DNA of 64,000 nucleotides, taken from assembly GCA_965203175.1 (NCBI GenBank), contig OZ241867.1:6496001-6560000 (forward strand), in the 5' to 3' direction. The stretch's first letter is position 1; each line of letters starts with the position of its first letter. The notes under the pieces were generated by a model. The model had not been told where the DNA came from and did no database searches. It was given only the letters and a program-made list of their open reading frames with translations. The stretch comes from Candidatus Latescibacterota bacterium (GTDB lineage Bacteria > Latescibacterota > UBA2968 > UBA8231). The position numbers and the translations under genes are program-made. Shown here piece after piece: positions 6,758-49,400 of this stretch.

Positions 6758-8839
6758 CTAGTAGACTACTCCGACGACCCCGGCGACGCGTTCTGCGCCC
6801 GTGTCCACCTCAACTTCCACCCGATAGAGGTACAGGCCTGGAGCCACTAACAAACCCGTGGCATTGCGCCCATCCCACAAACCTGGGGGCCGACTGTCGG
6901 TTGGCAGCCGCACATAGGCCCCGGCCAACAGCGGCGGCGGACTGAGGTCGCGCACCAAGCGTCCGCTCAAATCGAAGATACGAATGCCTACCTGTCGCGG
7001 AGCCTCAACCTTGGAGAGGGCGAATTCAATAGCGGCAAAATCGTTGATCCCATCAGCGTTGGGGCTGAAGACCGGCGGGTGGACGCGCACTTGGGAGAGC
7101 GCCCGCTTCTCCGAGGTCGCGGCCGACAACACCCACGAATAAGGTGCATTGCTCTGCGGGTCAATGGCCGCGTTCTCGGCCACGTTGAGCGGATTGTCAG
7201 AATTGGGAGCAAAGAGGCGGGCGCGAAACGCATGGATCGCCGCGTGCGTTCGCGTCCTAAAGCGAATTTGCAACTGGGCGTCCTGCCGCAGCGGCTCGGC
7301 CAAGGAGATGGTTAGCTTGTCGCGCGTCGAGTCCCAAGCCTCAAGCGCACTACCTTCCAAGCCGGTGATTTCTTCGAGCATAGCCGGCGCGGGCACGTCG
7401 ATGCGGATCTGGGCTAGGCCCGCGTCGGCGTCGGCGAATTCCACATCGAGCGTGTAGGTAAAGGAGGTATCCCGGCCCATGGGGACGCGGTTGGGGACAA
7501 TGCGGCCCCACGCTTTGGAGACGGGCACTTGGTCGAGATCAAAATCGATCTCTAGGTGCTTGAAAACAGGGGTTTTCTCGGGAGAACGAGTCGCCATGTT
7601 GACCCGATATTGCAAAAGCGCCCGCGGTTCCTCGGCTGGAAACCAGATGTCCCCGGTGGTGAGGGGCGAGCTCCACCCCCCTGCCGAATCGGCTAGCGCG
7701 GCAGCTTGGTCGGCGCTGCGGAACTGCACGGTGAGTTCCGTGCCATCGGGAACTGTGGCCCGCCAGCGCACTCGACCTACGTTCTTGACCACGTCTGGAG
7801 CGCCTAAGTCGAGCGGTGCCGAAATGAACGTTCCCCGCTCTGCGTGCAGGCTGCCGTACACCTCTATTTCGGCTACGTTGGGCTGAGTGATGGCGTTGAT
7901 ATCGACGATGACCAAGCGCAAGTGGCGCGTCCACAGCGGCGGGAAGCGGACCTCGCTGCGGATGAAATCGACGATGTCGCGCAGGATGGCCACTTCGGTC
8001 CAGCGAATTTGGTCGTCGCTGACCTGAATCGAGTACCCGCGCAGGGAGCGGTCGAAGTACTGCTCTTGGTTGCGGCCCCGGGTTAGAACCCGCACAGCGT
8101 GGATTTTGCGCCGCGTTCCCAAGTCGATATCGGCATTGAAATTCAAGGCGTTGATCGGCGGATTCCACGAGGTATTCAAATCGCCGTCGAGCACTTCCGG
8201 GCGATTGGAGATCCGGTCCTTGGCCAAATTTTGGCCGCGCACTTGTTTGAGGATAATGCCGCCGGCTAGAGAGCCAATATCCGTCCCACCTAAAAAGCCG
8301 GCGATAGGCTGGCCGAAGGACAAAGACGGCTCCAAGGTGCCTTCTTGTACCAGATGCCAAGCCTCGTCCCGCGCCACCTCGGCAGTCGTCCACCCATCGT
8401 CATCCTGCAACTGGTCACTCCAGTACCAAGGCTGGCGGGTGCGATCGGTCGTCGTTTGCACTGTCGAGGTGTCCCCCGCAGCAAATTCCACGGCCACGGT
8501 CGCGGCCAAACCATTGCCCCGCCCGCGACCGTGGTTGACCACCAGCGCGGCGATGTGGTTATCGCCGCGCACCACTGGCACCGCAAAAACTCGCGGCTGC
8601 ACAGCGCTGGAATCGCTGCCGACTAGCTCTCCGTTGAAGTACGCGGCAAAGCTGTCGGCTGCGGCCATGTGCAGCAAGCCCTCGCCGGCTTCGGGGGCCT
8701 CAAAGGTGGCGCGGTAGTAGAGCGCGCTGCGCCATGCGGTCTGCTCCCAGGTGCTCCCCTCGGTCTGGACGGCGGAGCACACTGCGGCTAGGCCGACAAC
8801 GGCGAGCAGGATCCGTTCTTTCAAAACTGTGGGGATCAT
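6758..8839 (-). CDS. Secreted discoidin/F5-8-type-C-like protein with FlgD-Ig/CHU_C-like C-terminal domain
   Basis: Signal peptide; LDGDLNTSW, IDLG, YSIQVSDDQIRW, AEIEVYG; C-terminus FSPNADGIND...IFDLSGRLVR...WDGRNATG...PGLYLY...VVY; close paralog of 23646-25706. Confidence 0.8.
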   Translation of the reverse strand: MIPTVLKERILLAVVGLAAVCSAVQTEGSTWEQTAWRSALYYRATFEAPEAGEGLLHMAAADSFAAYFNGELVGSDSSAVQPRVFAVPVVRGDNHIAALVVNHGRGRGNGLAATVAVEFAAGDTSTVQTTTDRTRQPWYWSDQLQDDDGWTTAEVARDEAWHLVQEGTLEPSLSFGQPIAGFLGGTDIGSLAGGIILKQVRGQNLAKDRISNRPEVLDGDLNTSWNPPINALNFNADIDLGTRRKIHAVRVLTRGRNQEQYFDRSLRGYSIQVSDDQIRWTEVAILRDIVDFIRSEVRFPPLWTRHLRLVIVDINAITQPNVAEIEVYGSLHAERGTFISAPLDLGAPDVVKNVGRVRWRATVPDGTELTVQFRSADQAAALADSAGGWSSPLTTGDIWFPAEEPRALLQYRVNMATRSPEKTPVFKHLEIDFDLDQVPVSKAWGRIVPNRVPMGRDTSFTYTLDVEFADADAGLAQIRIDVPAPAMLEEITGLEGSALEAWDSTRDKLTISLAEPLRQDAQLQIRFRTRTHAAIHAFRARLFAPNSDNPLNVAENAAIDPQSNAPYSWVLSAATSEKRALSQVRVHPPVFSPNADGINDFAAIEFALSKVEAPRQVGIRIFDLSGRLVRDLSPPPLLAGAYVRLPTDSRPPGLWDGRNATGLLVAPGLYLYRVEVEVDTGAERVAGVVGVVY

Positions 8840-12478: not shown

Positions 12479-12480
12479 AG

Positions 12481-14190
12481 TTACAACCCGGCAACATTGC
12501 CCTGCGTCCGGCGCACCGCAAGCCCCTGTCCCTCGGTGATCACCAGCCACTGGTCGGCGTCGAGATCGCGAAATTCCTCGACCCGGCCGCCGGGCCAGCG
12601 CACCACTAGCCGCTCGACTTTGGTGGCCCGTTGCAACCCGAAGTGAGCGCGGATGTCGCTGTGCGACAGGAAGCTGGTCCCCGCGACAATTTGGCGAATC
12701 TGGACGCCGGCGGCGACCACGGCCTCAATGCGAGCCCCAATGCCGTCCCGATTGCTCGCGGTGCCAATGAGGGAGACCTGGAGCCAGTGATTGCGGTTGC
12801 CGCCGTCGTTGCGCAACAGGGTGGGCGTATCGTCGATATTGAGGATGAGGATGTCGATGTCGCCGTCGTTGTCGTAGTCGCCAAAGGCCGCCCCCCGGCT
12901 CACCTTTTCCACGGCCAAGCCGCTGCCGGCCTGGGTACCAATTTCAACGAAGGAGCCGCTGCCGTCGTTGTCAAAGAGAAAATTGCGTTGGGCGTACCGC
13001 GTGCCCACATCGTAGTCGTCCAAGACCGGATAGACATGGCCATTGGCGGCGAATAGATCCAAATCGCCGTCGTTGTCGCGATCGAAGAAGCCCGTGCCCC
13101 AACCCACGAAGGGCATGCTCACCTCGCCCACGCCCACCGCGTGGCTCACATCGGTAAAAAGGCGTCCTCCTTCACTGCGGTACAAGGTGTAGTAATCCTC
13201 GGAGAAATGGGTGACGAAAAAGTCGCAATCGCCATCGTTGTCGTAGTCGCCCGTGGCCACGCCCATGCCGGCTTGTTCCTCGCCATCGGCGCTGTGGCTG
13301 GCACCCGTGGCCAAGGAGACATCTTTGAAGCGCCCATTGCCCAAGTTGCGCAAGAGCAGATTGGGATCGGTGTCGTTGGCCACGTACAGATCCAGGTCCC
13401 CATCGCTGTCGCTATCGACAAATACGGGTTGGAACCCGTTGTACGCCACCGGACCAACGCCGATCTGAGCGGTAACATCCTCAAAGGTACCATCGCCTCG
13501 ATTGCGGTAGAGCACGTCCTGTTCTCCCTCATAGGCGTTGGGTCCTTGGAATATCTTGATCCCCTTCCACAACTGATAGAGATCGGCTTCGTCGAGTTCG
13601 TCTGGATTAAAGCGGACAAAATTGGCCACGTACAGATCCACATCCCCGTCCACATCGTAGTCGCCCCAAGCAACGCCCGTGCTCCAGCGCGGATCCGCCA
13701 CCCCCGCAGCGTGGGCCACCTCGTCAAAGGTCCCATCGCCCTGATTGCGGTAGAGCCGGTTGGGTCCATAGTTGGTTGCCAAAAGGTCGGTGTCGCCGTC
13801 GTTGTCGTAATCCGCGGCCCCACAACCCATGCTCCAAGCCGTGTCGCCCACGCCAGCCGTGCGAGTGACATCGGCGAACGTGCCATCGCCCCGGTTGCGG
13901 TAGAGCCGGTTGCCGGGCGGGGGATCGGGCAGCGGCTCGAAGGAGGAGCCATTGATTAGGTATGCATCTAGGTAGCCGTCGTTGTCGTAGTCGAACAGAC
14001 CCGCGCCGCCGCCCTTGGACTCAATGATATAGGTCTTCTGCGGCTTGCCCGAGACATTGCGCCCATGCAGGCCGGCTTGTTGGGCCACATCGACAAAGAC
14101 CACCCGCGGCGGTGTAGCCTCTTCACCGCACCCGAGCAACAGCAGGCCCGCGCCGCCCAGCGCGCAGTACAAATTTCGCTTTCCAATCAT
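12481..14190 (-). CDS. CRTAC1-family protein (FG-GAP/VCBS repeats plus ASPIC/UnbV domain), lipoprotein
   Basis: Start ATG 14190 (TGATG overlap); LLLG-C; repeated DYDNDGDxD; C-terminal SNRDGIGARI, HFGL, VRWPGG. Confidence 0.9.
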   Translation of the reverse strand: MIGKRNLYCALGGAGLLLLGCGEEATPPRVVFVDVAQQAGLHGRNVSGKPQKTYIIESKGGGAGLFDYDNDGYLDAYLINGSSFEPLPDPPPGNRLYRNRGDGTFADVTRTAGVGDTAWSMGCGAADYDNDGDTDLLATNYGPNRLYRNQGDGTFDEVAHAAGVADPRWSTGVAWGDYDVDGDVDLYVANFVRFNPDELDEADLYQLWKGIKIFQGPNAYEGEQDVLYRNRGDGTFEDVTAQIGVGPVAYNGFQPVFVDSDSDGDLDLYVANDTDPNLLLRNLGNGRFKDVSLATGASHSADGEEQAGMGVATGDYDNDGDCDFFVTHFSEDYYTLYRSEGGRLFTDVSHAVGVGEVSMPFVGWGTGFFDRDNDGDLDLFAANGHVYPVLDDYDVGTRYAQRNFLFDNDGSGSFVEIGTQAGSGLAVEKVSRGAAFGDYDNDGDIDILILNIDDTPTLLRNDGGNRNHWLQVSLIGTASNRDGIGARIEAVVAAGVQIRQIVAGTSFLSHSDIRAHFGLQRATKVERLVVRWPGGRVEEFRDLDADQWLVITEGQGLAVRRTQGNVAGL

Positions 14191-15317
14191 CAGTCGCGTC
14201 CGTCGATAAATTCCAAGTCGCACTCGGCGACTGTGCGGCCCTCTGCAGGTGCAAACGTCCACCGCTCTATCTCAGAGCGGACACAGGCATCCACCGCCGC
14301 GCTCACTACCCCCGAATCGACGATTTCCACCGCTGCCACAGCACCGGTCGGGTCGATGGTAAAGCGGACTTTCATCCGTCCTGCAGCCGCGCGACCAGCG
14401 GCAAATTCGCGGGCGAAACAGGCGTTGATATCCGTCAGGCGATCTTGCAGTTCGCCCTCGAGCGCGCTAGCCGCCCGCGTCGGATTCCCGGCTGCGCCGC
14501 GATCTAGCTGTAGCGGGCCACCTAGCCGGGTATAAGTAACAAGCCCACTCAGGGACTCATCCCGCTCTCGCTCGACGAGTTCCCGCTGCACCTCGCGCTG
14601 GAACTCAAAGCGCAGAGTAGTAGTTTCCAACGGCGCGTCGTGGGGATTGAATTTGAGGACGAAGTCGCGCAGCACCAAGGCGACTTGCGCCACCTCGTCG
14701 GCGAGCGGATCAAAGACGATCAAACCTCGGTACGACTCGCCTTTGAAAATTTTGCGGTCGATGTTGTAGTTGTTGCTGCGCACAATGCCCATGCGCATGT
14801 TGAAGCGGTAAAAATCATTGCCGCTGGGGCTCCTGCGGGCGCGGTAGTACGACTCAAAGTTCCTAGGCGACGAACCCGCCAAAATGCCGTAGGGCTGGAG
14901 GAATTCGCCGCCCCGATCCGTCAGCAGCACGGCCTTGAGGGGGTTGAGTTCCACTTTGGCAAAGGCGCGGTTGTGCACCTCGATTTCAAAGACGGTAAAG
15001 CGATTGCGAACATAGCCAACCGTCGGATCGACATAGTCGCCAAAAGTGTAGGGATTGATCGAGTACTCTCCCTGGCTCGACTCTGTGGGGAACATGGCGT
15101 TGAGTTCCGAGTCGCTCAGGTGGCGAACCAAAAGCCGCAGGCCTTCTATGGTATAGGAGACGGCCCCGTCGCTCTCTAAAGCGTACTGGGCCGAGGCCGC
15201 AGACATAGGCAGCAGCCGGGAGACCTGGACGATTTGCTGAGGGTAGAGCAAATGGCAGCCACAGGCCAAGAGCCAGAGTCCGGCCGCACAAAAACCTATT
15301 TTTTTATTCGTCAACAT
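14190..15317 (-). CDS. Lipoprotein, uncharacterised family, with C-terminal TonB-C/AgmX-PglI-like domain
   Basis: LLACG-C; NPYTFGDYVDP, RNRFTVF, FESYYRAR; C-terminus INACF...GRMKVRFTIDPTGAV...VDACVRSEIERWTF; paralog of 1074-2261. Confidence 0.75.
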   Translation of the reverse strand: MLTNKKIGFCAAGLWLLACGCHLLYPQQIVQVSRLLPMSAASAQYALESDGAVSYTIEGLRLLVRHLSDSELNAMFPTESSQGEYSINPYTFGDYVDPTVGYVRNRFTVFEIEVHNRAFAKVELNPLKAVLLTDRGGEFLQPYGILAGSSPRNFESYYRARRSPSGNDFYRFNMRMGIVRSNNYNIDRKIFKGESYRGLIVFDPLADEVAQVALVLRDFVLKFNPHDAPLETTTLRFEFQREVQRELVERERDESLSGLVTYTRLGGPLQLDRGAAGNPTRAASALEGELQDRLTDINACFAREFAAGRAAAGRMKVRFTIDPTGAVAAVEIVDSGVVSAAVDACVRSEIERWTFAPAEGRTVAECDLEFIDGRD

Positions 15318-15321: not shown

Positions 15322-18138
15322 TCACTCGAACCCTAAAAATACCCGCATGAACAAGGAGGTGACGTCGAGGTCGTCTCCAGCGCGGGTGGGATCGTCAAAA
15401 ATCCGGCGAGTGAGGCGCAGGCCCACATTGGTCGAGAGCGCATAGCCGAAATAGTTCGAGTGATTGGTCAGTTGCACGACCCGCACGGCCTCGGTAAAAC
15501 TATTGCGGTTATCAGTGCGATCCTTTTTACTCAGCGGCAAAAAGGGCAGCCCCTGCATCCCACAGGAAAATTCAGTGCGCGGCGTCAGCCTATACTGAGC
15601 CTTGAGGATGGGGACCAACGTCCACTCGTCCTCCAGCGCAACCGGCAGACTGTCGCGGTTGCGGCGCAGGTACAGTCCCTTGCCCTGAAATACTACCAGC
15701 CAGTTGTCCGTAGCTTCCCAGTCGTACGCGGCGCGTGCTACCAAGGTCAGCAGGCGGATTTCGTCGGCACCCTGATCCGAACCATCGGACAGCACTGCGG
15801 CCTGCTGGAGATTGATGGCATAGCGCATATTGCCGTCCAAACGCAGTCCGGTCAGCGGCCACCACGCTCCTTCGAGGTAGTGCTGGCGGTCGATGCTGTC
15901 GCGCCATTCGAGCAGATCCCCCACCGTGGTGCGGTCGTACACTAGGGAACCAGGGCTGTGGTACGGGGCATCGGGAGCGGGTTCCGACAGGGTTTCTTCA
16001 AAGGTCTGGTACGGGTTGGCGAAGTCGTCGTGGACGCGCTGCAAGAAAATCTCGCCGGCGAAATAACCCTGCTGCCAATCGCGGCGCGACAGGGCAAGGC
16101 TGGCGTAGTCGATCTCGTTGCGCCGCTCGCTAAGAATGCCTTTGGCCTTGAGCCGCCCCACCCCGACAGACAAGCCGCCGGGCAGGCGCAGCCGGCCAAA
16201 GACGTGGCCGCCTCGCTGGTCCTGCTGGTAGGGTAGATCGGGTTCTAGGTCGTCCTCGCGCACATCGGCGATGCCGTTGTGGTTCCAGTCGCGGCCGTAG
16301 AAGTACGCGTCCGGTTCCACCGCAAAGAGCAAAAACGGCTCGACGTAATCGGGGAGGGCATTGCCATTGCGATTGGTATCGGGAATGCCGTCGTTGTCCT
16401 CGTCGTTGCCGGGAAAGACCCCGTCTGGGTCGTAGTCGGTCGCGCCGTGGTGGCCGCCCCGCGCTCCGGGACCTCGGTCGGGCCAACGATCGTCGTCGTC
16501 GTTGTCCTCGACAAAGCCGTCTGAGATCTCAGCCCCCGGCACCGCGGCTACGTGGTCGCCGATCAACTGGCGAGTAAAATTCGGCCCCACGGAGAACAAT
16601 TCGCCCCCCAATTCGAGATGGGAACTGGCCCACTCCGCAGTCAGATAGTACGAGGCATCCCGGGTGGTGCTGTGCGCTCCGTTCCACCGGCGCACGCCCT
16701 CAAATTCTCTCGGGAGGCGATGTCCGGGCCGGCCGTCTGGATAGCGCAAGTACTCAATGCTGCGGGCGAATTCTCCGCGGATGCGGGTGCGACCTCTTTC
16801 AAAATAGCCGTCAACGCCGACTACGGTGCGGCCGGTCCAAGCTCCGGCGTCGAGGCGAATCTGCGTTGCATTGGACAGGTCTTGGACATTGCCCGAGGCG
16901 CGGCGCAGCGATTCGAGGTTGGCCAACTGCCAGCGCGCCTGTTCCTGGGTGGCCCTAGGTTCGGCTTCGTACAAGCCGACCAGCTCCACCAGATAGTCGT
17001 TGCCTACCACGGCTTCCACTTCGACCTGCTCGACAACATACTCCTCGGTCAGATCGAAAAAGGCGAGAATGACATCGTAGCCATCGGCGCGCAATTCAGC
17101 GTCCGCCTCAATGGGCACAATAAAGTTCACCAGTTCGCCTAAGTTGACGTTGCGGGAGACGTCCTCGCCCTGCAAGTGGCGGCGCAGGTAGAAAAAATCG
17201 GCATAGCGCGTGCCTTGATCGGTGTACGGACGTCGCTGAAACTGGCCGGTGAGTCGATTGTTGAGGCCCACGGCCGTGGGATTGCGGGCGTCAATGCGCA
17301 CCAACTCGGGCGCAATATCCGGCCGGTACTCGCCGTTGATCAGCAGGCGCACCGCGGAAACAGCAGCGCCAGCGCGCTCGTCGCCGGGGGAATCGTCGGC
17401 AAAGCGCGCAATGATAAAACTGGGCAAAACTTGGTCTCCGCGCAGATCGCCTCGGAGGGAAAAATCGCCCTGCGCACTGTCGAAGAGATTGAAGTGGACG
17501 CCACTCGCTCCCAAGGTGAGCGCACCTAAGTGCAACTCGCCGCGTCCGCCCGTGAGCAGGGATGCGTTGCGCGCTTCTGATCGCGGGGTGCCGGCCACCC
17601 AGATGGGGTCGCGGAAGCGCGAGGCCAACAGCGAGAATTGGGTCGGCCCTTTGTCCACGTCGAGGCGGATCCCGTTGACGCCAGTCATATCGAGGGTCAG
17701 GGGCGTGAAAAAGGTGCGGATCTCGTCGCCGATGATCAGCCGGGCGGACCAGTCGTTGTAACTGTCGAAGCCGACGATATTGCGGTCGAGCAGCCCATAG
17801 CGCGCGTTCTGCTTGAAGAGCTCGCTGTTGGGCGCTTGGCCAATGGGGAAGTCGGCGCGCGTCTCCCGCCACGAAAACACATCGTACCCGTAGATCAGGT
17901 GATGGCCGAGCGGGCCGTAGTAATTGCGCCGGTCAAAGGGCGGTAGCAAGGTCTGATCCGGGATCTCGTAGTCCGTTTTCGCGCGATTGACATAGGGGCG
18001 GCCGGGCCGGTGGACGAAGAGGTGGGCCGGGAGAAAGGTCGGCACCCCAGGCCGGGGCTTGGACTCCTCGGCTTCGAGCCCCGGAACTGGGAGGGCCGAC
18101 AAGAAGAGCAAGCATCCTGTGCTAATTGCCGCTCTCAT
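15322..18138 (-). CDS. ~900-aa predicted outer-membrane beta-barrel protein with Asp-rich insert (paralog 1)
   Basis: Signal peptide; GDEIRTFFTPLTL, DDSPGD, GNVQDLSN, EDNDDDDRWPD, DGVFPG, PDYVEPFL, DLEPDLPY; amphipathic C-terminal strands ending LFMRVFLGFE. Confidence 0.7.
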   Translation of the reverse strand: MRAAISTGCLLFLSALPVPGLEAEESKPRPGVPTFLPAHLFVHRPGRPYVNRAKTDYEIPDQTLLPPFDRRNYYGPLGHHLIYGYDVFSWRETRADFPIGQAPNSELFKQNARYGLLDRNIVGFDSYNDWSARLIIGDEIRTFFTPLTLDMTGVNGIRLDVDKGPTQFSLLASRFRDPIWVAGTPRSEARNASLLTGGRGELHLGALTLGASGVHFNLFDSAQGDFSLRGDLRGDQVLPSFIIARFADDSPGDERAGAAVSAVRLLINGEYRPDIAPELVRIDARNPTAVGLNNRLTGQFQRRPYTDQGTRYADFFYLRRHLQGEDVSRNVNLGELVNFIVPIEADAELRADGYDVILAFFDLTEEYVVEQVEVEAVVGNDYLVELVGLYEAEPRATQEQARWQLANLESLRRASGNVQDLSNATQIRLDAGAWTGRTVVGVDGYFERGRTRIRGEFARSIEYLRYPDGRPGHRLPREFEGVRRWNGAHSTTRDASYYLTAEWASSHLELGGELFSVGPNFTRQLIGDHVAAVPGAEISDGFVEDNDDDDRWPDRGPGARGGHHGATDYDPDGVFPGNDEDNDGIPDTNRNGNALPDYVEPFLLFAVEPDAYFYGRDWNHNGIADVREDDLEPDLPYQQDQRGGHVFGRLRLPGGLSVGVGRLKAKGILSERRNEIDYASLALSRRDWQQGYFAGEIFLQRVHDDFANPYQTFEETLSEPAPDAPYHSPGSLVYDRTTVGDLLEWRDSIDRQHYLEGAWWPLTGLRLDGNMRYAINLQQAAVLSDGSDQGADEIRLLTLVARAAYDWEATDNWLVVFQGKGLYLRRNRDSLPVALEDEWTLVPILKAQYRLTPRTEFSCGMQGLPFLPLSKKDRTDNRNSFTEAVRVVQLTNHSNYFGYALSTNVGLRLTRRIFDDPTRAGDDLDVTSLFMRVFLGFE

Positions 18139-34177: not shown

Positions 34178-34178
34178 C

Positions 34179-40894: not shown

Positions 40895-41081
40895 CTGCCA
40901 AATTTCCTTGCCAAATTTTCGGATTCTGACTGCCGTTTAAGTATGCCTCTTGGCCATCTCCATGTCCACTTTGTCCCGACTTTTTGGTTTGTGTCGCATA
41001 GCTGGCGATTGTATATTTAGCCTCTTCAATAAAGCTTGCAAAGGTTGCAAGTTCGCTCAAACCACCACAAGGAGAGCAAGA

Positions 41082-42017
41082 ATGAAGTTATTGATTGCGT
41101 GCGGCTTTAGCCTAGCCTTAATCGGAGCCGCAAACGCCCAGTTCAACGATCCGCCGGCCCTCGAAAATCGCAACGGCCGGCTCGGCTTTGAGTTTTACAT
41201 GCTCGAAGTCCCCGATCCCAGTTCCATGACGGCCGATGGCGACGCCAGCGACTGGGGCTGGTTCGATCCCGAGTACACCCTCACCATGGATGAGTGGCGC
41301 GACGAAGCCGATCGTCCCCTGCCCGAGCGCGATGACTACAACGTCACCACCCTCATGGGCTGGAAAGGCGGCGATGTCAACCGCTGGTACGTGCATATGG
41401 AAATTGTCGACGACGTCCTCTGCCACTGGGGCACTAACGTCGAGCAATGGCACGCCGACATGATCGAATTTTCCCTCGACCCGACGGATCACGGTCGCGA
41501 ATTCGGCACCGGTTGGGTCATGGAATACATCGCCCGCCCGGGCGACATGGTGCCGCCGCAGAACGTGCGCTATCGCTGGACTCAGGACGATAAGCCCCCA
41601 GCGTGGAAGGAAAACAACGAGGTCATCGAGTTCGCCGTCCGCGTCGATCCGCCCGAAGCTTGGGCCGCTGAAGTGTGGGACGCCGGTGGGACCACGTATT
41701 ACGAGTGGAACTACGAGGTCAAGAGATTCATGGAAGACGGCGGGCCGTCGGTCAGCGAGACCTTCCAGTTGGATGCCGTTGCCGGGGAAGACGGCGCGGG
41801 CCTAGCCTTCAACCTGTGGGCTGAGGACAGCGAGCCAACAGGAGACGACGGCGACCGCGCCTCTTCAGTGGTCAACGACATGACCACGCGCGGCCCCGAA
41901 GCCTCGGCGCGGCAGTATTACGCTCATGCCCTGCTGCTCCGCATCGGCGAGTACGCCGCCGCAACGTCCGTGGAAGAGTCAACTTGGGCACAGATCAAGG
42001 ATTCTTTCGGCCGCTAA
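41082..42017 (+). CDS. Secreted hypothetical protein (possible CBM9/DOMON-like) with C-terminal TSVxxxxWAxIK tag
   Basis: Start ATG 41082 with AAGGAG RBS; signal peptide; ADGDASDW; ends ATSVEESTWAQIKDSFGR. Confidence 0.7.
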   Translation: MKLLIACGFSLALIGAANAQFNDPPALENRNGRLGFEFYMLEVPDPSSMTADGDASDWGWFDPEYTLTMDEWRDEADRPLPERDDYNVTTLMGWKGGDVNRWYVHMEIVDDVLCHWGTNVEQWHADMIEFSLDPTDHGREFGTGWVMEYIARPGDMVPPQNVRYRWTQDDKPPAWKENNEVIEFAVRVDPPEAWAAEVWDAGGTTYYEWNYEVKRFMEDGGPSVSETFQLDAVAGEDGAGLAFNLWAEDSEPTGDDGDRASSVVNDMTTRGPEASARQYYAHALLLRIGEYAAATSVEESTWAQIKDSFGR

Positions 42018-42167: not shown

Positions 42168-42887
42168 ATGCGCGGATGCTTATGGATCGCGGTGCTCATC
42201 TTCCTCGTCAGCGGTTGTGGGCGCTATTTCCCCCAACCGCTGCGGCCCACGCCCCAACAGGCCGAGGGCATAACCGTCAACGACGACGGCTCCGTCACCT
42301 ACGCACGCGAGCGGCTGGCCATCACCCTAAGGCCAATGACCGACGCCGAACTCAACCGGCAATTTCCCCAAGCCTCGACCGGCGGTGCTGCCGCAGTCAA
42401 TCCCTATACCTTTGGCGATTGGGCCCCACCCGGCGACGACTGGACGCCTTCCCGCTTTTTGGTGATGAAACTAGGCGTCGCCAATTACCAGTTCCCCAAG
42501 GTCGTCATCGACCCTCTCAAAGCCACGATCAAAGCGGCCAACAATCAAATCTACCGCGCCTTGAGCTACGCCGAGCTGTACGAATACTACCGATCGTACT
42601 GGCAGGCCAACTCCGGCCAAGGCCGAATCGAATTCAGGGCCCGCACCGACATTCTCAAGCAAACCATGTTCACCAATGCCTTCATCTTCAGTGGCCGCGA
42701 CGAGGAAGGGTACATCGTCTTTCCCCGTTTGGACGACGAAATACAGCGCATCCAAGTGGAAATCGCCGACATCGCCATCCGCTTCAATTTCGAGGACAAA
42801 CCCGTGGAGACCATTGACCTCAGCGTTTCTTTCGAGCGCGAGGTACTCAAGGGGAACGCGCCCCACAGCGCGGTTCCATTGAACTGA
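42168..42887 (+). CDS. Lipoprotein, same family as 1074-2261/14190-15317 but without the TonB-C-like domain
   Basis: LVSG-C; DGSVTY, NPYTFGDW, SRFLV, FPKVVIDP, EYYRS, GYIVF, FEREV. Confidence 0.75.
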   Translation: MRGCLWIAVLIFLVSGCGRYFPQPLRPTPQQAEGITVNDDGSVTYARERLAITLRPMTDAELNRQFPQASTGGAAAVNPYTFGDWAPPGDDWTPSRFLVMKLGVANYQFPKVVIDPLKATIKAANNQIYRALSYAELYEYYRSYWQANSGQGRIEFRARTDILKQTMFTNAFIFSGRDEEGYIVFPRLDDEIQRIQVEIADIAIRFNFEDKPVETIDLSVSFEREVLKGNAPHSAVPLN

Positions 42888-42892: not shown

Positions 42893-44902
42893 ATGTGGCC
42901 CCCTTGCTCCCTTCCGCTTGGCCGTGTCGCCGCTGTCTGCATGATGATAGGGCTGGGAGCACGGCTGGGGCTGGCCGAGGTGGAAACATACCACCTAGGC
43001 CGCGGCGGCTTGTCATGGTCTTCTCAGGCGGATATCCAAAACGGAACCGTAGGGGTTGAGGGCGCGCTACAGCCGCTGGAGTTGCGCCGCGGCCAGAACC
43101 TAATGGAGTTGCTGCGAGCCGCAGGTCAGACTTGGCTCAACGGCAGCCCCAGCGATTTTATCAAGCCCGGACAGCCGCGCACTTGGTCCAACGACGGCCC
43201 CTTCAATCAGGTAAACGGCCCCCTGCAACTCGTCGACGGCGACCCTTCCAGTTCGTCAGAAGGCGCGTTCCGAACGGCGCGCAACCAAGCGGGGGCCACG
43301 TTTTTTTGGGACCTCGGCGCTCCTTTTCCCATAGAACGCGTGCGTTTTGCGCCAGCACCCGGCGAGCTAGATTGGTTCATCAAGGCATTTGAACTGCGGG
43401 TGAGCGACGGCGAGCAGTTCGACGAGGTCCGGCGACCCGTCTATCACCTGCTGAGCCGCGTCGAGGACAACAAGGACCCCGTGGTCGAGCTTTCCTTCAA
43501 CGGAGTGCAGGGGCGCTTTCTCCGGCTCAAGGTGCTCTCGCGCAATCCCTTCAACCTCGCGGAATTCGAGGTGTACGGCGAGGGATTCGTGCCGGTGTCC
43601 AGCTATGTCTCGCAGCTCCATTCCTTTGGGCGACCCGTGAATTTCGGGCGGCTCGTAGTGCGGGCCGAGCGGTTGAACCGCGGCGCAGCAGGCGACACCG
43701 CGATCGTGCGCTTGCAGCTACGCAGCGGCATGGACGACACGCCCCTAGCCTATTTTCGCCGCGACCGCGACACCGGCGTCCGCGAAGAAGTATCCCTGTC
43801 CGAGTACAACAATCTGCCCAGACGCGCCCTGTACCGCCGCGATCCCGACACGGGAGCTGTGCTAGGAGAAGTAACGAGGACCGAGTATCTCTCACTGCCG
43901 TTGGCCGAGGTTGGGCCAGCGCGCGACTTTGTGCAGGCCGACATCCGCGAGGATGTGGAGAATTGGAGTTCTTGGACCCCACCACTGCAACTCGATTCGT
44001 CGGCTACGGTCGTCATGCCGTTGGGTCTGCCAAGTCCGCGCGAATTCTTGCAGTTCCGCATCTTTTTCAACGGACATGCCGCGAGCACCATGCGCCTCGA
44101 TAGCTTGGTAGTGGAGTTTTCTCCCGGACTGGTCAGCACAGCCGTCGGCGAAGTCGCATTGGCCACTGATCCCAATCCCGGCGACGGCGTCTTGGCCGTT
44201 CCGAGCGGGGTCGATACTTCCTTTGTCTGCGACATCCTCACCCAATTCGACGAAGACGATCTAGCGGGCTTTCGCGGCCTCAAGCTCACCGCTTTTCCAC
44301 CGCCCGTGTTTGAGCGGCTGCAAATGGGCGATCCCCTCGTCGAGGTCGCGGACGTCGAGGTCGAGCCTATCGCCGAGGGTTTTCACGTCTTTTTCCCGCC
44401 GGTGACGCGCCAAAACAACCAGCCCATGCGGCTGACCTTTAGGCTGCGGCTGCTGGAGTACCATACGCCACTGAACGCTTTCTTGCTCGGCGACGGCAAT
44501 GTGCCGCCGCATCCGATTGTGGCCGGCAATGCCAGTGCCGAGGTGGGAACGGGATCCATTCATATTTTTGCCGCAAGCGCCACGCCCTCGGTCGAAACCC
44601 TCCTCTCGACCGCCGTACTCACGCCCAACGGCGATGGGGTCAACGACGAGGTCGAAGTCTCCGCGGTGCTGACGCAATTTGCCGGCGAGGTGCCGCTGGC
44701 TATCGAAATCTTTGACCTTTCTGGTCTCCGGGTGCGGGAGCTGATTGCCGCGCCCCGGGCCGCGGGAGTCTATCGCGAAACCTGGGACGGCCGGGATGGG
44801 ACCGGCGCAAGGGTCGCGCCCGGTCTGTACCTATGTCGGATCGGGGTAAGCTCGGATATTGCCTCGACCACCGCGACACAACTCATAGGAGTGGCGTATT
44901 GA
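42893..44902 (+). CDS. Secreted discoidin-like protein with FlgD-Ig/CHU_C-like C-terminal domain
   Basis: LVDGDP, WDLGAPF, AEFEVYGEGF, WSSW, PSPREFLQFR, GVDTSF; LTPNGDGVND...IFDLSG...WDGRD...GVAY. Confidence 0.8.
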   Translation: MWPPCSLPLGRVAAVCMMIGLGARLGLAEVETYHLGRGGLSWSSQADIQNGTVGVEGALQPLELRRGQNLMELLRAAGQTWLNGSPSDFIKPGQPRTWSNDGPFNQVNGPLQLVDGDPSSSSEGAFRTARNQAGATFFWDLGAPFPIERVRFAPAPGELDWFIKAFELRVSDGEQFDEVRRPVYHLLSRVEDNKDPVVELSFNGVQGRFLRLKVLSRNPFNLAEFEVYGEGFVPVSSYVSQLHSFGRPVNFGRLVVRAERLNRGAAGDTAIVRLQLRSGMDDTPLAYFRRDRDTGVREEVSLSEYNNLPRRALYRRDPDTGAVLGEVTRTEYLSLPLAEVGPARDFVQADIREDVENWSSWTPPLQLDSSATVVMPLGLPSPREFLQFRIFFNGHAASTMRLDSLVVEFSPGLVSTAVGEVALATDPNPGDGVLAVPSGVDTSFVCDILTQFDEDDLAGFRGLKLTAFPPPVFERLQMGDPLVEVADVEVEPIAEGFHVFFPPVTRQNNQPMRLTFRLRLLEYHTPLNAFLLGDGNVPPHPIVAGNASAEVGTGSIHIFAASATPSVETLLSTAVLTPNGDGVNDEVEVSAVLTQFAGEVPLAIEIFDLSGLRVRELIAAPRAAGVYRETWDGRDGTGARVAPGLYLCRIGVSSDIASTTATQLIGVAY

Positions 44903-46917
44903 CCGCTTTCTTGCTAGTGCCGCTGCTGTTGCTCGCTGGGGCGGCTTGGGGGCAGGCGTCGTCATGGGTCGTCGGCTCAAGTGGCGAACCCTGGGCCGAT
45001 GTGGCCGAGCGCTGGATCGCCCTCGACGACTCTGTGCGCCTTGGAGCCGTCCAGCCTCGCTCCGTGCCCCCAGGACACAACGTGCTGCGCGGGTTGGTGC
45101 GCGCAACGGGTGTTGCCGCTCAAGTCAACATCTTCGACTACCCATGGGCCTTTACCAAAGACCCGGACCGGCTGGAGACCGAGAACCAATTTGTGGGTTG
45201 GCATCCGCGCATGTGGGGCGGCAACGGAGCGGTAATGCGCGGCCTCATAGATGGCGACGAGCTGACCGCCTCTTTCGTTCACCCGCCGCTCGTCGACGGG
45301 CGGCCCAATGCTGCGGTGTTCTATACGCTCGACTTGGGCGTGCCCATCGCCCTCGACAGCCTCGTCTTCTTCCCGCCCCAAAGCGGCTTTACCGACGACA
45401 ATAGACGCCAGCGCAACGTCTTCCCCGTGGGCTACGAAGTAACGCGCACCAACACGCCCACAGACTGGCTCATTTTCGAGGATGAAGCCGTCGCGTTCGG
45501 GTCGCCCGGCTACCACCCGCTCGACGAGCTAGTCGGCAGCACCTTTTCCAACAACCAGAGCATCGTATCGTTGCGGCCGCCTCTGCGCTTTACGCGCTTT
45601 TTGCGCTTCAAGTTCGGCGGCGTCACATCGCTGGGCATTCTCGCCGAGATACAGGCCTTTGGCCGCGGCTATCCCCAAGTGGCGCGTTACTTGTCGCAAG
45701 TTAAGTCCTTTGGCGAGCCAGTGAGTCTCGGTCGGCTTACTTGGCACTTCACACGCTACCAGCAGACGAGTTCCGGCCGCATCGTCGAAGATCCCGCGGC
45801 CCCGGTCCAGCTCATCATCCAGACGCGCTCCGGCACGGACGACGATCCAATCGACCACTTTATTTTTGACGAACTCAGTCGCCTCCTCAAAGTGGATCGC
45901 CCTACCTACCAAGACGCGCCGAGAGTCGTGCACGCCGCCTACGCGCGCGCGCCTGGATTCCAAGCGAGTCGAGGAGAGGATACGGAGAATTGGACGCCTT
46001 GGTCCATTGCCTACGTGGAGTCGGGCGACGAGGTGCGCTCGGCCGATGGCGGGGCATTCTTCCAGTTTCGCTTTGAGATCGCCACGGAGCAGCCCTTTGC
46101 CTTTGGCGTGCTGGACAGCGTGGCCTTTGAGGTGTCGCCTCTGTTGGCCGACAGCGTGCTGGCCGAGGTCTCGCTCGCCGGACCACTGCCCGACCCCAAA
46201 GTCCCACTAGGCGTGGATACTACGTTTGTCTATGACATTCGCACAGTTTTCGCCACCAGCGGCCGCGTGGGGTTTGACGCGATCGAATTAGACGTGCCTC
46301 CGGGCGCACACTTTCTCGGCTTAGAGATTGACGAAGTGCCTGCGCAGGAAGGCGCGGATTTTTCCTTCGTCGCCACACCCAACAAATTCAGCTTCACTTT
46401 TCCGCGAGTTTTTGTCGAGGACGCGTCGTTCCGCGTGCGCTACCGCAGTGCGATCTACCAAGCATCGCTCTTTTTAGAGGGGCAATTGATCAACCGAGAC
46501 CCACAGGCCACCCTCCTGCCCCAGTCGATTGAAGCGGGCGATGCGCGCGCGGACGTCGCCAGCAACAGCATCCAAGTAGTAGCCAGCGAGGAAGAGCTGA
46601 GCGTCTTGGGCGCGCTGCGGCTGTCTTCACCAGTCGTAACGCCCAACGGCGACGGAGCCAACGACATCGTCGTCGCGGCCTTTGATTTATTTGGCGTCAA
46701 CGGAGCGCCGACCACCATGGAAGTGCGAGACCTCGCCGGACGCCGCGTCGCCACCCTGCTCAGCGCCACGTCCCAAGCCGGCTCCTACGCGCCGACTTGG
46801 GACGGCACGGACACAGATGGGGAGTTGGTGCCTCCCGGCCTCTACTTGGTGCAGATAGAGGTCGAGATTGACTTGGGCGTGGAGACGCAGACGTACGCGG
46901 TCGCCGTCGCCTATTGA
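44899..46917 (+). CDS. Secreted discoidin-like protein with FlgD-Ig/CHU_C-like C-terminal domain
   Basis: TTG start at 44899 (TTGA overlap, AGGAG RBS); LIDGD, LDLGVP, AEIQAFGRGY, WTPWS, GVDTTF; VTPNGDGAND...WDGTD...VAVAY. Confidence 0.8.
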   Translation: MTAFLLVPLLLLAGAAWGQASSWVVGSSGEPWADVAERWIALDDSVRLGAVQPRSVPPGHNVLRGLVRATGVAAQVNIFDYPWAFTKDPDRLETENQFVGWHPRMWGGNGAVMRGLIDGDELTASFVHPPLVDGRPNAAVFYTLDLGVPIALDSLVFFPPQSGFTDDNRRQRNVFPVGYEVTRTNTPTDWLIFEDEAVAFGSPGYHPLDELVGSTFSNNQSIVSLRPPLRFTRFLRFKFGGVTSLGILAEIQAFGRGYPQVARYLSQVKSFGEPVSLGRLTWHFTRYQQTSSGRIVEDPAAPVQLIIQTRSGTDDDPIDHFIFDELSRLLKVDRPTYQDAPRVVHAAYARAPGFQASRGEDTENWTPWSIAYVESGDEVRSADGGAFFQFRFEIATEQPFAFGVLDSVAFEVSPLLADSVLAEVSLAGPLPDPKVPLGVDTTFVYDIRTVFATSGRVGFDAIELDVPPGAHFLGLEIDEVPAQEGADFSFVATPNKFSFTFPRVFVEDASFRVRYRSAIYQASLFLEGQLINRDPQATLLPQSIEAGDARADVASNSIQVVASEEELSVLGALRLSSPVVTPNGDGANDIVVAAFDLFGVNGAPTTMEVRDLAGRRVATLLSATSQAGSYAPTWDGTDTDGELVPPGLYLVQIEVEIDLGVETQTYAVAVAY

Positions 46918-49400
46918 CCGGCGCACCCTGCGGAGAAAAGCCGATGCTTAGACTTAGACGCGATCTCATCCATATCAATCTCGAAAGCGCGCCATCCCGA
47001 CAGCAGTGGAGTGCGATCGCAGCTAAAAAACTATCCCTGCTGCTCTTGCTCGTCGTTCACTCCGCTCTATACGCCCAAGACATCGTCTTTTCAGGGACGG
47101 ACTTTGCGGCGTGGAATCATCCGGCCGGGCTCGTCCAAATCGGCTCTACGGGAATCACTGTTAAGCGTTTTGGCACGACGTTTAACGCAGTCGCCAATGC
47201 CAACGAATTTTCATCCGTTACCATTGGCGACTACGGCCGCTTGCCAGTGCGCGCGCCCTCCAATCAGGCCCAAGCCGGACTAGTGGCCGACCAAGACCAC
47301 AACACCTATTGGCAGCCCGACTTAGACGATCCGCTCCAGAAGTGGTGGCTAGAGATCGATTTGGATCGCGCGGTCGTCGCCCGCAAGATCCGCGTAATCT
47401 TTCCCCAAACCGAGGACGCCCGTCCCTTTGAGTTCTTTTCGCTCCACATCAGCCCAGGCATCCAAGTCGCGGGCGCACCGGGTAAGCAAATCGCGTTCGA
47501 GCGCGTCGGTCGCCCGGTCAACAACAACACCAAGCAGGTGGTAGAGTTCGATCTCAGAACCATCAACAAGCCTCCTCTCAGTGGAACGCCCAAGGGGCAG
47601 TACTTGGCAAAGAGCGACAGCTTGGATTTTTCTATCCTCCGCTTTGTGCGCTTTGAAGCGGCCGGCCAAACCCCCGGCGCAGCTCTCGCCGAAATCGAGG
47701 TAGATGGCATTGGCTTCAACCTCTCGACCCGGGTGTTTACCGAAGTACGCGCGGAAAAGGGCGAGAAGTCATGGGGCGGCAGAACGTGGACCTCAAGAGC
47801 ACGCGATTGCGACGGCTGCGGCAAGGCCAGCGGCGCGGAATTTCTCGTGGATGCGGACTTGGGCCGACGGCTGTGGAGCATCCAAGCCTCTTCTGGGGAT
47901 CGCGATTGGCGCGACGATGGCGTCTGGTCCGTGATCGACTTTGGCAACGTGTTCCGCATCGACCGGATCATCTTCGTGCCGCTCATCGGCGGCCGCAGCC
48001 CGTGGCTCTACGGCTACCAGCAGGGCGCGGTGGGCGGCTTTCCCATGTTCGATATCCTCACATCCGACGGCAGTCCGAGCAATACGGCCGACCCGACGGC
48101 CGAAGGGCCGTTTGACTACGAGTTGCTGTCCGAAGTGCGCACCAGCTATCCCTTCAACGATTTCCAATTTCCCACCCGCGACACGCGCCTCATCCTCTGG
48201 CGCGTGATCGGCTTCTACGGGCGCGACGCCAACGCCTTGCAGCTTTTTGCCTTTCACCGCGAGGGCTATCCCAAGCGCGTCGAGTTAGAGTCCTCCGACC
48301 TCGATTTGGGTGCGGCGCGCAGCATCCGGCGCATCGAGTGGGACGCCGACTTGCCGCCGGGCACGCGCTTAGAAGTGCAGACCCAAACGGGCAACGGCTT
48401 TACCGAAGTTACGCGCTACTTTCTCAAAAATGGCGATGAAGTCACCAAGGAAGCCTATGAAGCGGCGCGCAAGCGCTATCGCGGCGACATCGTGCAAGAA
48501 AAGGTGCGCGATGCAACTTGGAGCACTTGGAGCCAGCCACACCGCTTTTCCGGGCAGAGCTTTCAGTCGCCTTCGCCGCGGCGCTACTTGCGCACGCGCA
48601 TTCGCCTGTACAGCGACGACCTCAACGCGTCGCCGGTGCTGCGCTCGCTGCAGGTTATGGCCAATGATCCGGTCATTGTTGCAGGCCTGAGCGGCTCGGT
48701 GTGGCCGCGCGAAGCCGCCCTCGATTCGCTGACTGAATTTCGCTATACCATCAAGCCGCAGGCATTCAACAGCCGCGACCCCGGATTCGACCAAGTGCTG
48801 ATCGCACTGCCTCCGGGCAGCGCGGACGCCGAATTGCTCGCAGCCTGGGTGGGAGGCCAGCAGGTAGAGGCGCACAGCTCGTTGCGCGGCGATTCGCTGT
48901 GGGTGCAGTTGCCGCCGCCGGTGGTAAAACGCGACTCCGTCAACATAGCGTTTGCAACGCGGGTTTTCGCCAGCCCGACAGTCTTTGAAACCTTTGTCTT
49001 TAACTCCAATCAAGAAGACAACGGACAGGGCGTCGTGCCGGCGGAGTTGGGAGCCGATCAAGTGTTTGTGCCCGCGGTGGTGCAGGGCGCATCCCTAATC
49101 CGCAACTTGCGCCACTCCAAACTGTTCACGCCCAATGGCGACGCAGTCAACGACCTATACGAACTGAGTTTTACCGTCGTCAAAACCGACAAGCAGCCGC
49201 ACGTGCGCGTCTTTTCTCTCGATGGCCGCCTAATCGCCGAATTGAATAACGCCACTCCGCGCGGTGCCCGGGCGACGTACGCTTGGGACGGCCAGCGCAA
49301 CGGCCAGATCGTGCCGGCGGGTATCTACATAGTGCATGTCGAGTTGCAAACCGATCCTAAAGACGAGATCGTCCAGCACTACGTTCACGTCGTATATTAG
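46914..49400 (+). CDS. Secreted tandem discoidin-like protein with FlgD-Ig/CHU_C-like C-terminal domain; start uncertain
   Basis: WWLEIDLDR, AEIEVDG, IDFGNVF, WSTWS, PSPRRYLR; FTPNGDAVND...VFSLDGRLI...WDGQ...HVVY. Confidence 0.78.
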   Translation: MTGAPCGEKPMLRLRRDLIHINLESAPSRQQWSAIAAKKLSLLLLLVVHSALYAQDIVFSGTDFAAWNHPAGLVQIGSTGITVKRFGTTFNAVANANEFSSVTIGDYGRLPVRAPSNQAQAGLVADQDHNTYWQPDLDDPLQKWWLEIDLDRAVVARKIRVIFPQTEDARPFEFFSLHISPGIQVAGAPGKQIAFERVGRPVNNNTKQVVEFDLRTINKPPLSGTPKGQYLAKSDSLDFSILRFVRFEAAGQTPGAALAEIEVDGIGFNLSTRVFTEVRAEKGEKSWGGRTWTSRARDCDGCGKASGAEFLVDADLGRRLWSIQASSGDRDWRDDGVWSVIDFGNVFRIDRIIFVPLIGGRSPWLYGYQQGAVGGFPMFDILTSDGSPSNTADPTAEGPFDYELLSEVRTSYPFNDFQFPTRDTRLILWRVIGFYGRDANALQLFAFHREGYPKRVELESSDLDLGAARSIRRIEWDADLPPGTRLEVQTQTGNGFTEVTRYFLKNGDEVTKEAYEAARKRYRGDIVQEKVRDATWSTWSQPHRFSGQSFQSPSPRRYLRTRIRLYSDDLNASPVLRSLQVMANDPVIVAGLSGSVWPREAALDSLTEFRYTIKPQAFNSRDPGFDQVLIALPPGSADAELLAAWVGGQQVEAHSSLRGDSLWVQLPPPVVKRDSVNIAFATRVFASPTVFETFVFNSNQEDNGQGVVPAELGADQVFVPAVVQGASLIRNLRHSKLFTPNGDAVNDLYELSFTVVKTDKQPHVRVFSLDGRLIAELNNATPRGARATYAWDGQRNGQIVPAGIYIVHVELQTDPKDEIVQHYVHVVY

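Follow-up and report, generated by a model that had tools for sequence, protein, structure and literature searches.

What are the large exported-type proteins that a Latescibacterota genome encodes beside giant predicted outer-membrane barrels, and what is the meaning of the tyrosine with which all of them end? The question is raised by a window of 64,000 nucleotides (nt) of Candidatus Latescibacterota bacterium (assembly GCA_965203175.1; positions 6,496,001-6,560,000 of the single 6.58-Mb contig OZ241867.1, GC content about 0.60, genome 93% complete by markers), in which five paralogous genes, P0001 to P0005, encode proteins sharing a C-terminal domain (CTD) that finishes in Tyr. The answer proposed here, to which we give an even chance, is that they are lectin-like cargo of a type IX-like pathway, that their Tyr-terminated CTD is a new class, and that they work at the cell surface together with co-encoded barrels, a lipoprotein and a SurA-like chaperone. 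A sequence-only reading of the window had described five cargo proteins; these are real members, not of a set of five, but of a family of about 170 paralogs in the genome. The five genes, in window coordinates, are:

6758..8839 (-), P0001: 693 amino acids (aa), with an N-terminal jelly-roll-like region, F5/8 type C domain, middle modules and CTD (6761-7096, -); ends VVY
23646..25706 (-), P0002: ATG start at 25706, the longest open reading frame (ORF) reaching a TTG at 25772; CTD at 23649-23984 (-); ends VVY
42893..44902 (+), P0003: 669 aa, with modelled CBM32 (residues 66-232), beta-sandwich domains and immunoglobulin-like (Ig-like) CTD (residues 561-669; 44564-44899, +); ends VAY
44899..46917 (+), P0004: TTG start with AGGAG 7 nt upstream; CTD at 46579-46914 (+); ends VAY
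46914..49400 (+), P0005: alternative ATG start at 46944; CTD at 49062-49397 (+); top scorer of the five for TIGR04131 and for CHU_C; ends VVY

All five reading frames and their ends (VVY, VVY, VAY, VAY and VVY, in this order) are as the sequence-only reading gave them, and the motifs it described in the middle modules (Q-x-R/Q-S/T...W-S/T...F/L-Q-Y/F-R and D-T/S...F-x-Y) are legible in all five translations. The N-termini were judged by reading and by a hydropathy heuristic, the strongest 12-residue hydropathy within the first 70 residues (KD12). Positive charge comes first, a hydrophobic segment next (KD12 2.3-3.0) and then an A-x-A-like site in each protein, which supports the proposed signal peptides as far as this heuristic goes. 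Concerning the discoidin-like domain, which had been assigned to all five, the assignment stands for P0001, P0002 and P0003, where Pfam F5_F8_type_C (PF00754) scores are above the cut-off (40.4, 42.4 and 33.6 bits, respectively), but P0005 is weak (18.8 bits) and P0004 has no Pfam match to it. The bodies of P0004 and P0003, CTD excluded, are 33% identical over 515 aligned positions.

P0001 and P0002 are indeed colinear close paralogs, 52% identical over 683 aligned positions, but the single operon in which they had been placed is not borne out: they share a co-directional array of 12 genes that is interrupted by a gap of 265 nt at 12216-12480. A promoter and terminator scan of 6500-26400 returned 4 promoter-like and 21 terminator-like sites, no excess over shuffled sequence. 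The remaining pairs among the five show 26-35% overall identity, with the CTD being the better conserved part in every pair. For P0005 the ATG at 46944, preceded by a better ribosome-binding site (GGAGA), appears a more likely start than the TTG at 46914. The P0003-P0004 (44896-44902) and P0004-P0005 (46911-46917) junctions are alike, with Tyr codon, TGA stop and TTG start overlapping in the sequence TATTGA.

The extent of the family was determined on 22,824 stop-to-stop ORFs of at least 80 aa, with longest-ORF starts and no gene caller, using a profile built from the CTDs of P0001-P0005; these five match their own profile by construction, while the remaining 164 members do not. The profile matches 246 ORFs and the score distribution is bimodal. 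At 60 bits or more there are 167 ORFs, in which the domain lies within 5 residues of the C-terminus in 167/167 cases and the last residue is Tyr in 167/167. With two lower scorers this gives 169 Tyr-ended ORFs (VAY 80, VVY 35, LAY 16, IAY 12 and others), with a median length of 720 aa. The other 77 matches, all below 60 bits, have K, R, E, P or D as last residue or place the domain at least 6 residues before the end; in nine low scorers it lies near the N-terminus of proteins of ~660-1180 aa. Outside the window, at genome positions 2086899-2101368 and 4436225-4443345, there are tandem genes of ~810-1180 aa whose type A CTD-like or FlgD_ig-like domain is N-terminal (~87-196).

Relatedness is not confined to the CTD, as 169/169 are homologous outside the CTD to one or more of the five (blastp E<1e-3); the stretch 360-560 of P0003 is common to 155-167 of the 169 and its discoidin region to 115-135. 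Pfam content was sampled in the 65 Tyr-CTD ORFs falling in 20 fetched genome regions, with counts read off the table: 29 show an F5/8 type C match at E<=1e-4 and 60 show CHU_C and/or FlgD_ig, and within this sample there is no family beyond these three and no catalytic domain. The data show one family of ~170 paralogs that includes the five genes, the strictly terminal place of its CTD with the final Tyr, and the gene linkage described below. The earlier description of a glycan-binding set agrees with these data, in that sequence and model suggest a paralogous, exported-type, non-enzymatic and lectin-like group.

Aligned over ~110 residues, the CTDs of the five are identical at 18 columns, among them P-N-x-D-x-x-N-D, L-x-G, W-D-G, G-x-Y and the closing Y. 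In the consensus of the 169, P20, D23, W73, G86 and Y88 are present in every sequence, and the last five columns read V/I/L, A/G/S, V/L/I, A/V and Y. It should be noted that the final Y is 100% in this consensus by selection, the 167/167 count being free of it. Percent identity is a weak measure for the CTD, since shuffled CTDs put through the same aligner reach a mean of 25% and a maximum of 40%, and homology therefore rests on profile scores. For CHU_C (PF13585, gathering cut-off 27 bits) P0002 (27.9) and P0005 (32.7) pass, with P0001, P0003 and P0004 at 23.9, 22.3 and 18.9 bits, and about 30 of the 65 sampled paralogs are above the cut-off. For FlgD_ig (PF13860, gathering cut-off also 27 bits) P0003 (31.4) and P0004 (38.1) pass, with P0002 at 23.7, P0001 at 13.5 and P0005 giving no match. 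To judge from its sequence, the CTD would be a distinct subclass of the FlgD_ig/CHU_C group, whose Ig-like C-terminal domains serve type IX secretion, and is characterised by PNGDGxND, DLxG, WDG, PGxY and a last strand of hydrophobic-(A/V)-Tyr-COOH type. The case for a sorting role is made by the single copy, the exact terminal position and the fixed last residue; the PNGDG motif has no part in it.

Comparison with the type A-like CTD of the window gene 26945-28768 (hhalign, five CTDs) yields a probability of 97.6%, with an alignment that is restricted to core columns 28-97 and takes in neither the PNGDGxND segment nor the last strand of the Tyr-ended CTD. That gene (-) encodes 607 aa with two FlgD_ig stretches and a TIGR04183 match of 31.4 bits, and ends LLLK. 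A further gene of this other CTD class, 34594-37956 (-), encodes 1120 aa with ThuA, glucose/sorbosone dehydrogenase (GSDH), PKD, CBM6 and Por_Secre_tail and ends VLLR. In the whole genome TIGR04183 has 103 matches, most of which pass the cut-off with full model coverage; they are largely ORFs other than the Tyr-CTD ones, which occur near the bottom of the list only, with partial coverage.

Structural information comes from an AlphaFold2 model of P0003 (44-sequence alignment, pLDDT 88.4, pTM 0.74), which is a string of all-beta domains. In a structure search independent of Foldseek, the PorU C-terminal region 6za2 comes first (Z 12.8, root-mean-square deviation (rmsd) 2.7, 101 aligned), its match spanning residues 438-669 of the model. 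CBM32 modules tie with it in Z: residues 66-232 match 4a42, the CBM32-6 of CpGH89, at Z 12.8, and over 25 others of the CBM32/discoidin kind at Z >=10.4, with 120-136 aligned. A search of PDB sequences with the CTD part of the P0003 family profile found FlgD 3osv (E 3.4e-8) and, weakly, PorU 6za2 (E 0.018), while in the ESM Atlas residues 236-560 match unnamed clusters and their own kind only. The model thus predicts a CBM32/discoidin fold and an Ig-like CTD fold; membership in F5/8 type C / CBM32 is indicated by the Pfam cut-off for P0001-P0003 and by the jelly-roll fold for the P0003 model.

The genes directly downstream of the cargo had been taken for outer-membrane barrels. There are four of them:

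49626..52337 (+), B4: predicted outer-membrane beta-barrel of ~880-900 aa, directly downstream of P0003-P0005
20876-23563 (-), B3: barrel paralog in the tandem run 15322..23563, which lies directly downstream of P0002
18135-20879 (-), B2: barrel paralog in the same tandem run
15322-18138 (-), B1: barrel paralog in the same tandem run

None of the four has a Pfam or NCBIfam match even at E<=1, and so none has the Plug/TonB_dep_Rec domain of a SusC-like protein; a barrel profile run against PDB sequences gave 0 matches at E<=1. The AlphaFold2 model of B4 (58-sequence alignment, pLDDT 79.4, pTM 0.79) consists of long beta hairpins. The 45 Foldseek matches read at E<=1e-3 are all membrane barrels but one (apolipoprotein B) and comprise SlpA, MtrB, LptD, FimD/PapC, porins and TonB-dependent transporters, with E from 6e-8 to 1e-3 and TM-scores of 0.13-0.25. 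A second structure search gave SlpA 8ae1 (Z 14.0, rmsd 7.6, 421 aligned, model 150-900). PorV, PorP and SprA chains are absent among the best 50 rows listed for B4, an absence compatible with a relationship. The model and its fold matches to solved barrels agree with the earlier assignment, and the ~900-aa neighbours are probably large outer-membrane barrels of no assignable family. The barrel of B4 is interrupted at residues ~528-625 by an Asp/Asn-rich segment that hardly varies, D, N, P and G being fixed in many columns, and that seems to resemble calcium-binding repeats; model confidence is low in the 540-590 region (pLDDT 44-66).

Cargo and barrel genes are linked throughout the genome. 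When Tyr-CTD (Y) and barrel (B) ORFs are joined on the same strand across gaps <400 bp, 58 of the 62 barrel paralogs fall in clusters with Tyr-CTD genes and 85 of the 169 Tyr-CTD ORFs cluster with a barrel, with 43 directly adjacent cargo-then-barrel pairs. Common orders are YB (11), YYB (7), YYYB (7), YYYBB (4) and YBBB (2), the window containing one YYYB and one YBBB, and the two families together make up 8.5% of the genome. The cassettes also include, or lie beside, the following genes:

42168..42887 (+), P0233: 239-aa lipoprotein of an unnamed family, lipobox LVSGC
14190..15317 (-), P0235: lipoprotein with a P0233-type N-terminal domain and a TonB_C / AgmX-PglI-type C-terminal domain
52290..53726 (-): SurA-like parvulin peptidyl-prolyl isomerase
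40950..42017 (+), P0234: exported-type protein of 355 aa that belongs to no known family; its gene lies upstream of P0233, the lipoprotein gene

Against a baseline of 25% of the genome lying <=8 kb from a Y or B gene, such proximity is found for 14/14 P0233 paralogs and 20/21 SurA-like paralogs outside the window; 15/15 paralogs of P0235, 14/14 of its family member 1074-2261 (-) and 7/8 of P0234 are likewise near Tyr-CTD or barrel genes. In the ESM Atlas P0233 matches unnamed 'lipoprotein' clusters only. Parts of the lipoprotein, cargo and barrel genes are matched at 95-99% identity by RNA-library contigs, which stem from four runs in three studies. In contigs of two of the three studies word depth over 42150-42887, the lipoprotein, is 83-156, next to 0-40 for cargo and barrel, a contig depth that cannot rank expression.

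The same arrangement is present in other genomes. P0003 and the barrel have relatives in Latescibacteria/Latescibacterota metagenome-assembled genomes (MAGs) or in MAGs labelled Gemmatimonadetes; these relatives are annotated as hypothetical or sometimes as 'gliding motility-associated C-terminal domain', 'FlgD immunoglobulin-like domain' or 'discoidin domain'; the Tyr-CTD family was found here only in Latescibacterota-type records. A one-genome-per-species scan gave >651 barrel loci, the best 80 of which are labelled Latescibacter (65), Gemmatimonadetes/ota (14) or 'uncultured bacterium' (1). In these 80 loci, which are not independent (several per genome, many orthologs), the profile of the 169 CTDs finds 204 ORFs at >=60 bits; the domain is terminal in 204/204 and 201/204 end in Y, the others in VAH (twice) and VAR (once). 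A same-strand Y ORF precedes B in 67 loci, or in 58 under the strict 400-bp rule, and 5 of the 80 have no Y ORF, the barrel match beginning <=24 bases from the locus start in four of them. Among 81 sampled genomes of the phylum 46 have the barrel and 44 the Tyr-CTD (E<=1e-15). The barrel accompanies the CTD in all 44 and stands alone in two, and both are missing from two families of the same class (24 and 6 genomes). As relatives among the 81 genomes are not independent, this co-occurrence is a family-level pattern.

Machinery of type IX kind is encoded in the genome, with PorU at 632 bits, SprA at 618 bits summed and, adjoining porU, a PorV-like gene at 147.5 bits, below the cut-off of 250. 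SprA is found in 41 of the 44 Tyr-CTD-positive genomes and the other 3 have PorU above its cut-off. In the mechanism we propose, Sec would export the proteins to the periplasm, where the Tyr-ended CTD would be recognised by the type IX-like machinery to which SprA, PorU and the PorV-like protein may belong. The cargo would then be retained at the surface with the downstream giant barrel, like type B cargo with PorP/SprF, as gene order suggests, and modules composed of lectin-like proteins, barrel, small lipoprotein and SurA-like chaperone may capture glycans or other surface ligands.

Several results weigh against this proposal, and the first concern the signal models. The CTD had been called type-B-like, which holds in that it is related to the type B CTD models, but its Pfam scores are at the edge of the cut-off and those for TIGR04131 are mostly below it. 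With TIGR04131 (cut-off 35 bits) hmmscan gives 18.2, 17.3, none, none and 33.7 bits for P0001-P0005, none passing. In a six-frame genome search 6 of 68 matches pass, the P0005 CTD reaching 37.7 bits, and matches span about model positions 3-75 of 85, leaving the model end unmatched. With TIGR04183 (cut-off 23 bits) P0004 gives 14.1 and P0005 13.4 bits, and the other three give none.

The machinery and the gene linkage supply the next objections. In the whole genome PorP/SprF (TIGR03519) matches nothing but the PorV-like gene, with 21.3 bits where the cut-off is 90.55, and the position directly downstream that a PorP/SprF gene would hold beside type B cargo is taken by the unrelated ~900-aa barrel. 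Also genome-wide, GldK gives 20 partial matches to FGE-sulfatase proteins only, the best at 84 versus 350 bits; GldL, GldM and GldN TIGRFAMs and Pfam GldM_1st have no match, with controls silent or, in two unrelated genomes, below the cut-off, so that absence is not established. SprA is found in 76 of the 81 sampled genomes, including all 30 of the two cassette-free families, and its co-occurrence with the cassette is therefore uninformative. Adjacent barrels are wanting for 84 of the 169 Tyr-CTD genes, 19 of them <=5 kb and 35 >20 kb from one. The sole expression data are the RNA-library contigs, which cannot show transcription or co-transcription and whose gaps are uninformative. Separately, the best GldK-model match of the genome is a 251-aa FGE-sulfatase-domain protein encoded just upstream of P0001 (8836-9591, -).

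Finally, related domains are widespread. The five-CTD profile, run over 1.84 billion representatives, matches 113,657 proteins at E<=1e-3, of which 4,117 reach E<=1e-10, and the best 150, of 633-7,779 aa, have 4-34 matched stretches each, mostly internal. Five of the top representatives, when scanned, are FlgD_ig/CHU_C repeat proteins, and one printed example repeats PNGDGxND...WDG many times; as the list is filled by such multi-repeat giants, single terminal Tyr-CTDs outside the phylum would be masked there. The statement that FxPNGDGxND marks type B CTDs is accordingly too narrow, the motif-bearing domain forming 4-34 internal tandem copies in other large proteins. Internal copies and the lack of a conserved last residue, which the sequence-only reading had named as grounds for giving up its proposal, are a feature of the wider domain family and not of the Tyr-ended class.

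Export or anchoring of the cargo by the neighbouring barrels, which had also been proposed, was examined through paired distances over the 43 adjacent Y-then-B pairs (p-distances from MAFFT alignments, Mantel correlations). The barrel correlates with the cargo body at 0.61 (p 5e-4) and with the CTD at 0.34 (p 5e-4). Partial correlation with the body given the CTD is 0.54 (p 5e-4), whereas with the CTD given the body it is -0.07 (p 0.86), a further point against our proposal since no pair-specific matching appears in these 43 pairs. The barrel, then, tracks the body and not the CTD, and the check lends no support to the earlier suggestion. The positive barrel-body correlation does not imply binding, because whole-operon duplication suffices to produce it, paralogs sharing their history. 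Mean distance is 0.63 for the CTD and 0.73 for the body, the greater conservation of the CTD being expected of a part that meets a shared machinery. With no co-variation of CTD and barrel, a generic signal read by shared machinery fits better than a pair-specific lock and key.

Other explanations use much of the same evidence. One is nutrient capture independent of SusCD, in which the barrel would be an uptake channel, maybe energised by the TonB_C lipoprotein, and the glycan binders would be secreted and anchored by the general type IX pathway without contact between CTD and barrel. This is an explanation that we consider unlikely, even though the CBM32 fold (Z 12.8; over 25 entries of CBM32/discoidin type reach Z >=10.4) and the F5/8 type C matches in 29 of 65 sampled paralogs, catalytic domains occurring in none, agree with it. 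Lipoproteins of TonB_C/AgmX type in or beside the cassettes (15/15 and 14/14 paralogs), and the sulfatase, FGE-type enzyme, GDSL hydrolase, ThuA-GSDH-CBM6 protein and ExbB that the window also encodes, likewise fit. The co-variation of the barrel with the cargo body, not the CTD, points the same way, but is equally explained by whole-operon duplication. Against an uptake channel stand the barrels themselves, without Plug/TonB-dependent receptor domain or any Pfam match at E<=1; no SusD-like protein was found in the genome, and both ligand and transport are predictions.

A bolder and, in our estimate, improbable idea is that Tyr-CTD and barrel form a self-contained machine for display or uptake, in which the hydrophobic-(A/V)-Tyr end would be read by the barrel or by the lipoprotein and SurA-like helpers and not by classical type IX; the roughly forty cassettes per genome might then be the phylum's equivalent of SusCD loci.

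It has also to be considered that the giant barrels may serve the Tyr-CTD proteins as their own translocon or usher, without the type IX system, with the last CTD strand pairing into the barrel and the cargo being passed and held there. This would account for the 58 of 62 barrels that adjoin cargo genes, mostly downstream of them, for the phyletic co-occurrence in 44/44 genomes and for the co-localisation of SurA-like chaperone (20/21) and lipoprotein (14/14) with the cassette. The last CTD strand alternates hydrophobics and ends Tyr-COOH, like an outer-membrane beta-signal; the structural neighbours of the B4 model include the ushers FimD/PapC (Z 11.7-11.8, 324-341 aligned), together with SlpA, MtrB and LptD; and no GldKLMN motor or ring was detected, the GldLMN controls being uninformative. 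Yet TM-scores are low (0.13-0.25) to every known barrel, 84 of the 169 cargo genes lack an adjacent barrel (35 of them being >20 kb away), and, with the body controlled for, CTD and barrel show no co-variation. The CTD core is, moreover, homologous to the type A-like CTD of its own genome and structurally closest to the PorU C-terminal region. On balance we regard a dedicated translocon as quite unlikely.

That the CTD serves structure only, as one more Ig-like module of the widespread FlgD_ig repeat kind, and carries no sorting information in proteins that stay periplasmic or are released, is very unlikely: the same domain type with PNGDGxND does form internal tandem repeats in many large proteins and the curated CTD models score borderline, but here there is one copy at the exact C-terminus (167/167, and 204/204 in related loci), with a final Tyr (167/167 and 201/204) and more conserved than the rest of the protein.

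Other neighbours complete the picture of the window. Three FG-GAP/ASPIC-UnbV proteins are encoded on the minus strand (12481-14262, 53677-55308 and 62187-63794), two of their genes being paired with genes for 400-aa TPR proteins (55311-56513 and 60988-62190, both -); the FG-GAP/ASPIC-UnbV family has 55-56 paralogs outside the window, ~60% of which lie <=8 kb from Tyr-CTD or barrel genes, compared to the 25% background. The gene 37953-39929 (-) encodes a 658-aa DUF6785 + DUF6784 protein; 30 of its 55 paralogs outside the window have Tyr-CTD or barrel genes nearby. The ExbB/MotA/TolQ-family gene 33048-33740 (+) is followed by an overlapping ORF without family match, 33601-34215 (+), and neither has genome paralogs at >=50% coverage.

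Returning to the type IX-like reading, comparison with known systems may begin with the SusC/SusD loci. These too are repeated by the dozen in a genome and combine a barrel with surface proteins of carbohydrate-binding type and a lipoprotein, glycan-active genes being nearby. The present cassettes differ in having no TonB-dependent receptor/Plug domain and no SusD-like protein that could be found, and their surface proteins bear CTDs instead of lipid anchors. Should our reading hold, it would illustrate the construction of the cell surface in a major uncultured phylum and the capture of substrates there without SusCD.

With the FlgD Ig-like (PF13860) repeats the CTD shares the domain family and the PNGDGxND...WDG...GxY signature; those repeats, however, are internal and tandem, with 4-34 per protein, whereas the Tyr-CTD is single, always terminal and has a fixed final residue. 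In the literature searched we found no paper linking 'FlgD Ig-like' with type IX secretion, nor one linking Latescibacteria/Latescibacterota with type IX secretion or T9SS, and the passages on 'outer membrane' and 'secretion' in Youssef 2015 (PMC4454575) do not mention a type IX system.

Type A CTDs (TIGR04183/PF18962) and the PorU C-terminal region are, like the Tyr-CTD, Ig-like beta-sandwiches at the exact C-terminus. Homology to the window's type A-like CTD extends over the core (hhalign 97.6%), and the PorU region is the best structural match (Z 12.8). Unlike in type A, the best TIGR04183 scores of the five are 13-14 bits versus a cut-off of 23, the PNGDGxND segment and the VAY strand remain unaligned, and the type A-like tails of this genome end in K, R or E.

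Type B cargo is similar in organisation. PorP/SprF barrels are about 300 aa long. The Latescibacterota barrel has ~900 aa, no detectable relation to PorP/SprF and no family, but is alike in being an outer-membrane barrel encoded directly downstream of the cargo gene. In Bacteroidota type IX secretion, cargo with type B CTDs works with cognate PorP/SprF-like barrels, as in SprB-SprF and PG1035-PorP-PorE, according to PMC9143113 and PMC12618676; the gene order of type B cargo and porP/sprF given in the latter agrees with that of Tyr-CTD and barrel, and the same source describes five conserved motifs, A-E, in type B CTDs. Further likenesses are a CTD at the very end of large surface proteins, weak-to-borderline TIGR04131/PF13585 matches, many cargo-barrel pairs along with 'orphan' cargo genes, and the presence of SprA, PorU and a PorV-like protein in the genome. 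Among the differences, the Tyr-CTD ends in an invariant Tyr while TIGR04131 matches stop ~10 model positions early, one to three cargo genes stand beside one to three barrels, and the hosts are Latescibacterota, in which no GldKLMN was detected, and not Bacteroidota. Here there are ~170 cargo genes, compared to the 12 type B substrates that PMC12618676 gives for F. johnsoniae.

Type IX signals so far comprise type A and type B, both defined in Bacteroidota. The Tyr-CTD would add a third, sharply defined class, with ~170 lectin-like proteins in one genome linked to 62 giant barrels of no known family, and its conserved core, next to a variable first segment and last strand, would provide a natural experiment on what a CTD requires.

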